Below are positions 12,001-15,000 of a DNA stretch of 35,026 nt, one piece after another. Numbering within the stretch: position 1 is the stretch's first letter; every line of letters starts with the position of its first letter. Source of the DNA: a virus. Its lineage: Duplodnaviria > Heunggongvirae > Uroviricota > Caudoviricetes. The stretch lies in the IMG/VR virus record IMGVR_UViG_2698536657_000017, positions 1 to 35,026 of that record, one strand, 5' to 3'. The position numbers are program-made.

Positions 12001-15000
12001 TGAGGGAGTTCGCTTCAACAGCCAGCAAAATTATAACGGGCGCATGTTCCAGTCTCTTTATGCCCTGGCGACCGACGACAAGGGAGAACTGTGTTACCTG
12101 CATCAGACATTGCTTGATGGAGCTAAAAAAGCAGACATTGGTATCAGCGCCAGAAGGCTCAAATCTTTACAGGACGATAACTATCTGGACCATGCCCGGT
12201 CAGTTGCTATCAGGATGTTTCCGGTAGCCAGTACACTGGGTATAGCTGAAGGTATCGAAACCGCGTTGTCCGCACATCAGATTTACAAAGTAAATACCTG
12301 GGCAACCATTAACAGTGGTTTTATGAAAAAGTTCCGCGTACCGGCGGGAGTCACCCATCTGATTATTTTTGCCGATCGCGATGAATACAGTGCTACCGGA
12401 ATGGCTGCGGCCTGTGAATGCGCACATGCAAATCTCCAGGCCCGAAATGACATTCAGCGGGTAAGTGTCCGGTGGCCTGATCATGATGATTTCAACAATA
12501 TGCTCATGAACGGCGATCAGGTTCGGGAACTGGTTTTTTACAGAAAAAAGGCGGTTGCGTGATGCGTACGGACAATCAGGTACATAAAGCTTTATTCACT
12601 ATCCCGACGGCAGCGTACAGCGCCGTTCCGGCAAATATCAAACCTCTGCCAGAACAAAGGAGGATCACCGGACATAAACAGACAGATGCTTATCTCTGGA
12701 TTCTGGAGGTTATTCACCTGAACGAGGCCGTACATCTGGACGCAGCCGAAGCAGCACTGGAGAAACTCAAAATAACGCCGGAAGAAGCGAGTGAACGGTA
12801 TGGACGTTATTTGCAGGAGATTAATGTTGATCCTTTCCAGATTGCTTTCGCAACCATAGGCATAGATAACCCGGCGCAGGCGATCAGGAATGCCCGTGAG
12901 AATATCAAAAAAGCCGCATCAGTCAGGGCCACATTTGGCAGCTATGAGGCAGCACTCGATGATGTGGAGGCTGAGCGGATAATTCGCACCTCCCCGAAAT
13001 TTATCGACGATTACTACTGGGGCTGGACTGCGGCAGAGAAAAAAGCCGGAAGTATTGACGGTGTTCGCTCAAATGAAATTGATGATCAGCGTCGTGCATA
13101 TGTTGATGGCTATCGTGATGTACTGCCAGAGCCTCATACATTGTCAGACGTTGTTCGTGAGTTTATTTACTGGGACTGGCTTTATGAGATGCGCCAGACA
13201 GCGGGGAGAGAAACAGGGGACAAATACGGTTTCACAGGTGAACATCATGAGTCAGTATATGATCGGCAGTTCTGGCTCGAAAATTTGCTGGGAAAAATAA
13301 AGCCTGTGACGCGTGATGAAGCGGTTGAAGTGTGTCGCTGGTTTCTGGCAAGCGGAAAAGATGAGTACATGGAAGACAATGGTTCAGCGGTCATTCTCAA
13401 TCTGGTTGGGGAGTGTGAGCAATGAAGCCGGAGATATCCAGTAGACATTTTCCCCCTGAGCATTCAAATCAGAAAAAGTATGGTTACAGCGGAGTACAGA
13501 ATAATGCGTGATATCCAACAGGTTCTGTCCCGATGGGGTGCATGGGTGGTAAATAATCATGAGAGTGTGGCATGGTCCGGCGTCGCTGCCGGATTTAAGG
13601 GAGTGATCCCATCAAAGGTTAAATCACGGCCTCAGTGTACCGATGATGATGCGCTGATTATCAGCAATTGCATGGCGCAACTGAACGTCAACAACAGCGA
13701 TTTGCATGATTTTCTGTATGATTATTATGTGTTCGGGATGACGCTTATGGGACTGGGCCGTAAGCATGAGCGCTCTGATTGCTGGGCCGGGCGGGTACTG
13801 CAAAAAGCTGAAGGTGTTATTGAGGGGATGTTGATTATGCAGGGAATAAAACTGGAAATGGACAGATACGTTGAGCGTGAACGATCAGGGGCACAGGTCA
13901 GTCAGTTTTCCGGACATACGGGAAATTGAAAGCGCGGGGTTTTACTGTAGAATGACTGCGGGTGCTTGAGGGTGTCTGCCTCGGGCATGCTGCCGTAAGG
14001 CAGACGGAGAAAAGCCCCAGTTAACATTACGCGTCCTGCAAGACGCTTAACATTAATCTGAGGCCAATTTCATGCTGAACACATGTAGGTTAGCCTCTTA
14101 CGTGCCGAAAGGCAAGGAGAAGCAGGCTATGAAGCAGCAAAAGGCGATGTTAATCGCCCTGATCGTCATCTGTTTAACCGTCATTCTGACGGTACTGGTA
14201 GCGAGGAAAGACCTCTGCGATGTACGAATCCGAACCGGCCAGACGGAGGTCGCTGTCTTCGTAGACTACGAATCTGAGAAGTAAGAGACCTGGCGGGGGA
14301 GTAATCTCCCGCCCCCTCTGATGTGTCAGGCATCCTCAACGCACCCGTACTTTAGTTGTCATATGCTCCGCAAAATGCAGGTTGTCGTTGCAACCCGTGC
14401 GGTAATTTTTTGTGTGCGAGTGCTCAAAAAACGTTGATTTTCATAAAAGGACGATTTTATGCTGCCAGACCAGCGACCAGCGACCAGCGACCGTAAATCA
14501 AGAAAGTCTGTAAAATCTGTTGAACCAGACATTGCCGACCGGGCTAACAACTGGCTCAAATCTTATGGACTTGATTACAAACTGGAGCAGGCACCACTTA
14601 ACAACGAGATCGATAACGCACTGGATGCTTATTTTTCGAAAAATGGCGGCACAGGCGGTAATCGTCCCGACGTAAAACTCCTTGTTCAGGACAAATACGG
14701 CAAGCAGTATCCCGTTCTCATCGAGTATAAAGGCTACAAGGACAGGCTTATCAGACTTGGCAGCAACGGTATTATTGAGAACAAAGATGCCAGAAAAGAA
14801 TGGAATTTTAAAAATATTAATGGATACGCGGTGAATGGCGCAGTCCATTATGCCAACGCACTTCTTCAGTTCACCAATTACCCTGATATTATTGCTATTG
14901 GTATGACCGGCTGGCGCGATGATGGTACAGGCGAACTGCATCATGAAATCGGCGTGTGGTACGTATCAAAGAATAATTTAGGAGCCGGGCAGAAGGTTGG

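Follow-up and report, generated by a model that had tools for sequence, protein, structure and literature searches.

What is the small toxin-like gene that lies directly behind the antiterminator gene Q of a tailed phage, and which promoter serves it? This question is raised by a viral DNA stretch of 35,026 nucleotides (nt) (Caudoviricetes; IMG/VR record IMGVR_UViG_2698536657_000017, positions 1 to 35,026), the whole of which we call the window. The original prediction for this stretch placed a hok-like type I toxin module at 13926-14320, between Q and a set of restriction-modification (RM) genes, and proposed that the promoter-like sequence TTGAAA-16-TAGAAT at 13926-13953 could be either the hok promoter or the late promoter pR'. 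Our analysis indicates that the locus very probably holds a hok/mok/sok type I toxin-antitoxin module that is intact and belongs to the hokW-sokW subtype. The module is an already known system that is named in public databases, and the matches of its hok open reading frame (ORF), mok leader, promoter and hairpin go far beyond chance. Its placement directly after Q and before the RM genes was borne out by the Pfam HOK_GEF and Rfam RF01794 matches, by homology to phage 933W and by the PADLOC calls for the RM genes. The following features were assigned to the module, where SD stands for Shine-Dalgarno sequence and MFE for minimum free energy:

13926-13953, plus strand: hok promoter, with a -35 element TTGAAA (13926-13931), a 16-nt spacer and a -10 element TAGAAT (13948-13953)
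13960-14354, plus strand: predicted full-length mok-hok mRNA, with its 5′ end placed at G13960 and its 3′ end at or beyond fbi
13960-13971, plus strand: tac (translational activator) element at the mRNA 5′ end, pairing with 14334-14346 in the MFE structure
14011-14019, plus strand: ucb or anti-SD box in the AAAGCCCCA region, with roles after PMC9841398
14072-14284, plus strand: mok leader ORF of 70 amino acids in the hok frame, with SD GAGG at 14060-14063 and the layout of the annotated mokW
14114-14119, plus strand: hok ribosome-binding site AAGGAG, 9 nt upstream of the hok ATG
14129-14284, plus strand: hok toxin ORF of 51 amino acids, identified by the Pfam HOK_GEF match and by comparison with HokW
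14292-14313, plus strand: GC-rich stem-loop in which 14292-14300 pairs with 14305-14313 (9 bp, 4-nt loop)
14334-14346, plus strand: fbi (fold-back inhibitory) element, pairing with 13960-13971 and identical in 933W and all relatives examined
14369-14412, plus strand: possible weak intrinsic terminator (hairpin followed by T6) that would separate the hok module from the RM gene
14115-14087, minus strand: predicted sok promoter, with a -35 element TTGCCT (14115-14110), a 17-nt spacer, a -10 element TAACCT (14092-14087) and a predicted start at 14080
14080 to ~14010, minus strand: predicted Sok antitoxin RNA of ~71 nt, positioned from the annotated sokW of 933W (2564-2634 in our 933W locus L001)
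13902-14027 and 14181-14339, minus strand: ORFs of 41 and 52 amino acids that overlap the module and were not treated as genes

The hok ORF encodes the protein MKQQKAMLIALIVICLTVILTVLVARKDLCDVRIRTGQTEVAVFVDYESEK, as taken from the ORF listing and from a reading of 13300-14900. It matches the Pfam family PF01848 (HOK_GEF) over the full-length domain (E=1.3e-20, 73 bits, cutoff 22) and is identical to HokW in 47 of 51 residues, the four substitutions being conservative. The in-frame leader ORF and the strong ribosome-binding site that had been noted previously are both there, as mok and as the AAGGAG in front of hok. The mok frame of plasmid R1 is out of phase with hok, whereas that of the window is in frame.

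A megablast search against phage records aligned 13947-14354 with the hokW/mokW/sokW locus of the Stx2 phage 933W (92.9% nt identity over 409 nt, E ~1e-171), and the matching block carries annotated mokW and hokW as well as the antisense sokW. The elements were transferred by aligning the window with 933W and PhiR12_3. The 933W locus also has an in-frame Mok of 70 amino acids, and it shows no sequence difference in the predicted sok promoter, in tac or in fbi. In contrast, the -35 element, the upstream flank and the sequence after fbi differ, and four base changes fall into the Sok 5′ tail and mok initiation region. The setting differs as well: hokW of 933W lies at 58.4-58.8 kb, near the right genome end, antiparallel to the late genes and ~38 kb from Q, whereas the window module follows Q directly, runs parallel to rightward transcription and is located upstream of pR'. 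In the Sp5 prophage (VT2-Sakai), hokW-sokW has been shown experimentally to be a toxin-antitoxin locus of type I, and HokW and R1 Hok share 44% identity (PMC8621323). The window module shares with R1 hok/sok (parB) the Hok protein, an overlapping mok, an antisense Sok, the tac/fbi and ucb/mok SD elements and a 3′ stem-loop (PMC9841398). Similarity to R1 at the sequence level is distant only, and the R1 system acts in post-segregational killing on a plasmid, whereas the present one is carried by a prophage.

The RNA elements are in line with this assignment. Rfam RF01794 matched 13960-14134 over its full model (positions 1-157) with 108 bits (gathering score 59, E=7.7e-24). Although this model is named 'sok', it matches the plus strand, i.e. 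the leader of the hok mRNA. The alignment opens at 13960 with GGGUGCUUGAGG, the bases with which the Rfam model begins, and the 5′ end of the hok mRNA was placed at about 13960. The RNA 13960-14354 folds with an MFE of -166.3 kcal/mol (z = -6.4). In this in silico fold, tac and fbi are joined by 12 bp with one bulge and with pair probabilities of at least 0.97, and the mok SD at 14060-14064 is paired with ucb bases 14014-14018. The Rfam consensus joins tac to ucb, as in the 'open' form that should arise once the 3′ end has been processed; the window sequence agrees with this consensus. The tac/fbi and ucb elements, the coupling to mok, Sok binding, RNase III and the protective 3′ stem-loop have all been described for R1 hok (PMC9841398).

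The GC hairpin, previously given as 14293-14318, is present but slightly shorter, at 14292-14313. We consider it the likely counterpart of the last, protective 3′ stem-loop of the truncated R1 hok mRNA (PMC9841398). A role as hok terminator was rejected, since no T-run follows it and both the 933W homology and fbi extend past it. As fbi lies downstream of this hairpin, the module reaches at least 14346; the interval 13926-14320 was therefore correctly located but too short at its 3′ end, where homology continues to 14354. The hairpin at 14369-14412 may be the mRNA 3′ terminator. It is kept in the relatives with the order Q, hok, RM and is absent from 933W, and it was not called by the terminator scan.

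The antisense sok gene had been missed although it lies inside the predicted interval, and so had the 3′ fbi element. A cis-encoded antisense Sok with its own promoter and terminator is predicted here. This RNA would be complementary to the mok SD (GAGG, 14060-14063) and the mok start codon, and it folds into a 9-nt single-stranded 5′ tail, a long hairpin and then a U-run (z = -4.4). The predicted sok promoter stretch is identical in 933W, whose sokW is annotated, and the function of the sokW promoter of Sp5 was demonstrated by mutation (PMC8621323).

Next to the module, the window harbours Q and, further downstream, a complete late promoter region:

13480-13929, plus strand: antiterminator gene Q (Pfam PF06530, 2.5e-45); in RefSeq relatives the start is called at the ATG equivalent to 13504 (141 amino acids)
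17788-17815, plus strand: late promoter pR', with -35 TTTACA (17788-17793) and -10 TATCAT (17810-17815), from 933W homology and the promoter scan
17829-17836, plus strand: qut, ACATTGCC, from 933W homology
17845-17866, plus strand: tR', a hairpin followed by a T-run, from the terminator scan and 933W homology
18051-18074, plus strand: second terminator, from the terminator scan

Over 302 nt, the region 17780-18080 shares 93.7% identity with the annotated 933W block of pR', qut and two terminators, and the Q of 933W belongs to PF06530 as well. BP-4795 and PhiR12_3 carry an alignable block, too: in BP-4795 it comes directly behind a Q that is 67.6% identical to that of the window, and in PhiR12_3 it is found downstream of the RM genes. 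The pR' of 933W and that of BP-4795 overlap the stop codon of Q or come directly after it, whereas in the window 3.87 kb of cargo separate Q from pR'. With tR', this promoter (17788-17875) would yield a terminated leader RNA of ~50 nt when Q is absent. We take its equivalent in 933W and Sp5 to be the regulatory small RNA StxS (Sy et al. 2020).

PF06530-type Q proteins form the Q21/Q933W family (naming from bioRxiv 10.1101/651190). The window Q is 64-68% identical to Stx-phage Q proteins over residues 8-143. It tracks them up to F143 and then diverges into a new six-residue tail, SGHTGN. Similarity to 933W resumes at ~17775-17780, inside the last Q codons of 933W. By this divergence and the point of resumption, ~13909 to ~17775 is a clean insertion of ~3.87 kb, comprising hok/sok and the type IIG RM genes, in the 3′ end of Q. 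The insertion created the replaced C-terminal tail of Q, and hok/sok and the RM genes form a single cassette that separates Q from pR' and precedes the late operon. Since pR' at 17788 is downstream of this cassette, the hok module lies outside the late locus; the earlier placement of hok and the RM genes in the late locus did not hold, as both precede pR' (17788-17815). The cassette could be expressed in the lysogen from its own promoters or through readthrough of early transcription. Its RM part consists of:

14459-16543, plus strand: type IIG restriction-methyltransferase (PADLOC REase_MTase_IIG, 7.2e-234; Pfam N6_Mtase)
16603-17139 and 17202-17723, plus strand: split specificity subunit (PADLOC Specificity_II; Pfam Methylase_S)

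Two repeat arrays were observed in these genes. At 14468-14492, the 5′ end of the type IIG RM gene contains three tandem copies of the 7-nt sequence GACCAGC. Counterparts of this array were found in the loci of relatives (L002, 6965-7545; L004, 8070-8531; L005, 7070-7726), with copy numbers of 66 in E. coli KY173, 30+63 in 2012EL-2448 and 83 in PhiR12_3. Arrays of 3, 66 and ~93 copies keep the RM ORF in frame when it is read from the upstream ATG, and 83 copies shift it out of frame. In other assemblies the RM protein has 683-729 amino acids, and many contigs break at the array. It looks as though the RM enzyme is phase-variable through slipped-strand changes of this array. Long versions of the array are called in RefSeq as an opposite-strand 'YXWGXW repeat-containing protein', probably spuriously. 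The second array, at 17075-17137, consists of 7.9 copies of the 8-nt repeat GCGGACTC at the end of the specificity ORF 16603-17139. The specificity subunit is split into 178 + 173 amino acids in the window, and it is also split in 2012EL-2448 (16 repeat copies), while in relatives without the 8-nt repeat it is a single protein of 369-383 amino acids. This repeat could be a second phase-variable switch or serve the shuffling of half-subunits.

We also looked at the distribution of the locus. The Q-hok junction was covered to at least 80% in 29 of 5,426 complete E. coli genomes, and the order Q, hok, RM, pR' is also found in PhiR12_3, E. coli KY173 and 2012EL-2448. In NCBI, the exact Hok protein occurs on 255 E. 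coli contigs. The exact Mok is present on 87 contigs, and the two proteins go by the name Hok family toxin. On every contig with the exact Hok that was read, helicase, primase, Q and hok follow each other in this order. An RM gene follows hok in all five loci that have a downstream flank; the remaining contigs break ~180 nt after hok. The intactness of hok and mok was compared in three relatives, KY173, 2012EL-2448 and PhiR12_3, and the window copy is free of the lesions present in them. In the window, all known functional elements are intact, namely the hok and mok ORFs, both promoters, tac, fbi, ucb and the 3′ stem-loop.

How firmly, then, can the promoter and the state of the module be assigned? 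The sequence at 13926-13953 ties with pR' for the best sigma-70 score in the promoter scan of 13400-19200 (10/12), and its -35 element overlaps the TGA stop codon of Q (13927-13929), a position that mimics 933W, where the -35 element of the annotated pR' overlaps the end of Q. It could thereby be taken for a Q-dependent pR', or for a promoter doubling as one, with hok and the RM genes as Q-antiterminated late genes. We regard this as extremely unlikely: the close copy of the 933W-type pR'/qut/tR' region lies downstream of the cassette, and the same block stands right behind the related Q of BP-4795. Moreover, the sequence after the window Q did not align with pR' of 933W, BP-4795 or PhiR12_3. 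The terminator scan found no terminator-like site on the plus strand within 13960-17845, the first being the tR' homologue at 17845-17866, and direct reading of 13960-13985 (GGGTGCTTGAGGGTGTCTGCCTCGGG) revealed no TATAAT-like -10-like pause element. A sigma-dependent pause element in the initial transcribed region is a requirement for pR' (bioRxiv 10.1101/651190). The identity of the 13926 promoter as pR' was therefore rejected on the strength of the block at 17780-18080. The -10 element is common to the 933W hokW locus, and although the -35 context differs, its TTG is kept at equal spacing. Because homology to hokW, a gene far from Q in 933W, extends from the -10 element onward, 13926-13953 is clearly the hok promoter, and of the two proposed identities only this one stood; the true pR' region (17788-17866) lies 3.9 kb downstream.

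Several observations weigh against an intact hokW-sokW-type module. Many chromosomal hok loci are inactive, among them most of those of E. coli K-12, and by that analogy the module could be a decaying, silent hok remnant, carried passively with the RM cassette, whose ORFs are intact by chance or recent descent and whose toxin is not effectively expressed. hok is frameshifted in both of the closest complete genomes, by a 1-nt deletion (KY173) or a 1-nt insertion (2012EL-2448), and RefSeq annotates both copies as frameshifted pseudogenes; in PhiR12_3, mok has a stop 5 nt upstream of the hok ATG. These independent frameshifts and the mok stop imply that selection on the locus is not uniformly strong. 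The substitutions V20L, A22V, T25A and E31D separate the window Hok from HokW, and the NCBIfam Hok subfamily model (46 vs 73 bits) and the HokA model reach it below their cutoffs only. The MFE structure of the truncated RNA 13960-14318 is a local 5′ hairpin with the mok SD still paired and without the open tac/ucb form, so that for the tac/ucb stem we rely on the Rfam consensus and not on folds of the window. Against a silent remnant stand the intactness of every element of the window copy, the many contigs with exactly the same Hok and Mok, and the conservative nature of the substitutions. In addition, the mok stop of PhiR12_3 adjoins the hok ATG, and R1 requires mok translation at least as far as the hok SD (PMC9841398). 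Altogether, we consider a silent remnant quite unlikely and retain the intact hokW-sokW-type module as the preferred reading.

Such a module would be expected to work as follows. The constitutive promoter at 13926-13953 would produce a mok-hok mRNA of ~390 nt from ~13960. At full length this mRNA would be inactive, with its 5′ tac element bound to the 3′ fbi element and the mok SD sequestered by ucb. Slow trimming of the 3′ end to the GC stem-loop at 14292-14313 would then allow tac to pair with ucb, which would free the mok ribosome-binding site. The unstable Sok (minus strand, 14080 to ~14010) would bind the mok region and block translation of mok and, by coupling, of hok, and the Sok-mRNA duplex would be marked for RNase III. 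Once Sok synthesis stops, the 51-amino-acid Hok would be translated and inserted in the inner membrane, and the membrane would collapse. The elements of this scheme were recognised in the window by sequence; their functions are taken from homologues only.

With respect to its biological role, the hokW-sokW module of the Sp5 prophage of E. coli O157 Sakai is the closest guide. There, HokW is toxic (Takada et al., PMC8621323) and is neutralised by sokW, transcribed from its own promoter, partly via RNase III and Hfq (PMC8621323). Sok is lost after mitomycin C, HokW production after this treatment needs RecA, and HokW appears ~1 h ahead of the endolysin (PMC8621323). The module leads to faster lysis, and its deletion halves phage release, a ~twofold effect after induction (PMC8621323). 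Because of these results, the best-supported role for the window module, by analogy, would be that of an induction-triggered lysis helper that acts through loss of Sok upon prophage induction; plausible secondary roles would be abortive infection and the stable maintenance of the prophage, both proposed before, or of the cassette. It is also conceivable, if on balance improbable, that the main role is instead defence or addiction together with the RM system, by abortive infection when an incoming lytic phage shuts off host transcription, or by post-segregational killing, and not as an aid to the phage's own lysis. R1 hok/sok on a high-copy plasmid reduced T4 plating by 42% (cited in PMC8621323), the module is linked to the type IIG RM genes in one cassette conserved as a unit, and as both lie upstream of pR' their own promoters could serve in the lysogen. 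Nevertheless, the sole measured phenotype of hokW-sokW is faster growth arrest with ~twofold more phage release on induction, and PADLOC has no model that matches the window Hok. We thus keep the lysis-helper role as the favoured one.

The placement behind Q suggests how such a trigger might work. hok is sense-oriented right behind Q, and the terminator scan found no plus-strand terminator-like site between them. Upon induction, delayed-early transcription through Q might occlude the convergent sok promoter and give 5′-extended hok RNAs without a free tac end, which would hard-wire the release of Hok to the early-to-late switch. This proposal is speculative, and we consider it rather doubtful.

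Downstream of pR', the window differs from the Stx phages. The ~350 bp at 18081-18435 stand where 933W has three tRNA genes and stx2AB, and the prophage is an stx-less relative of the Stx phages. In Stx phages, cargo follows the pR'-proximal terminators, whereas the window holds only a DUF7661 gene there (72 amino acids, minus strand, ~18300-18085 by sequence reading), which is also called in near-identical contigs. Two tandem copies of Rfam STnc100 were found at 18465-18670 and 18732-18945 (153 and 200 bits), between the pR'-proximal terminators and a nanS-p-like esterase gene (19158-21068). A single homologous copy lies between stxB and the esterase gene of 933W (3249-3492 in our 933W locus L003).

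The main outcome is a corrected map of this prophage, in which pR' is located at 17788-17815 and hok/sok and the RM genes would be lysogen-expressible cargo. To the hok-like module recognised before, the analysis adds the sok, tac, ucb and fbi parts, the 3′ boundary, the assignment of the promoter, the true pR' and the single-cassette insertion in the end of Q. The placement of hok behind Q offers a natural system to study how induction triggers a type I toxin, a question left by the hokW-sokW study. If the coupling to early transcription were true, Hok would serve as an accessory pre-holin whose release shortly precedes the action of Q at pR', and readthrough and occlusion would provide a mechanism for the so far unexplained RecA-dependent loss of Sok from hokW-sokW. 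The Q/pR' junction would then be a site for cargo that is expressed in the lysogen and yet triggered by induction.

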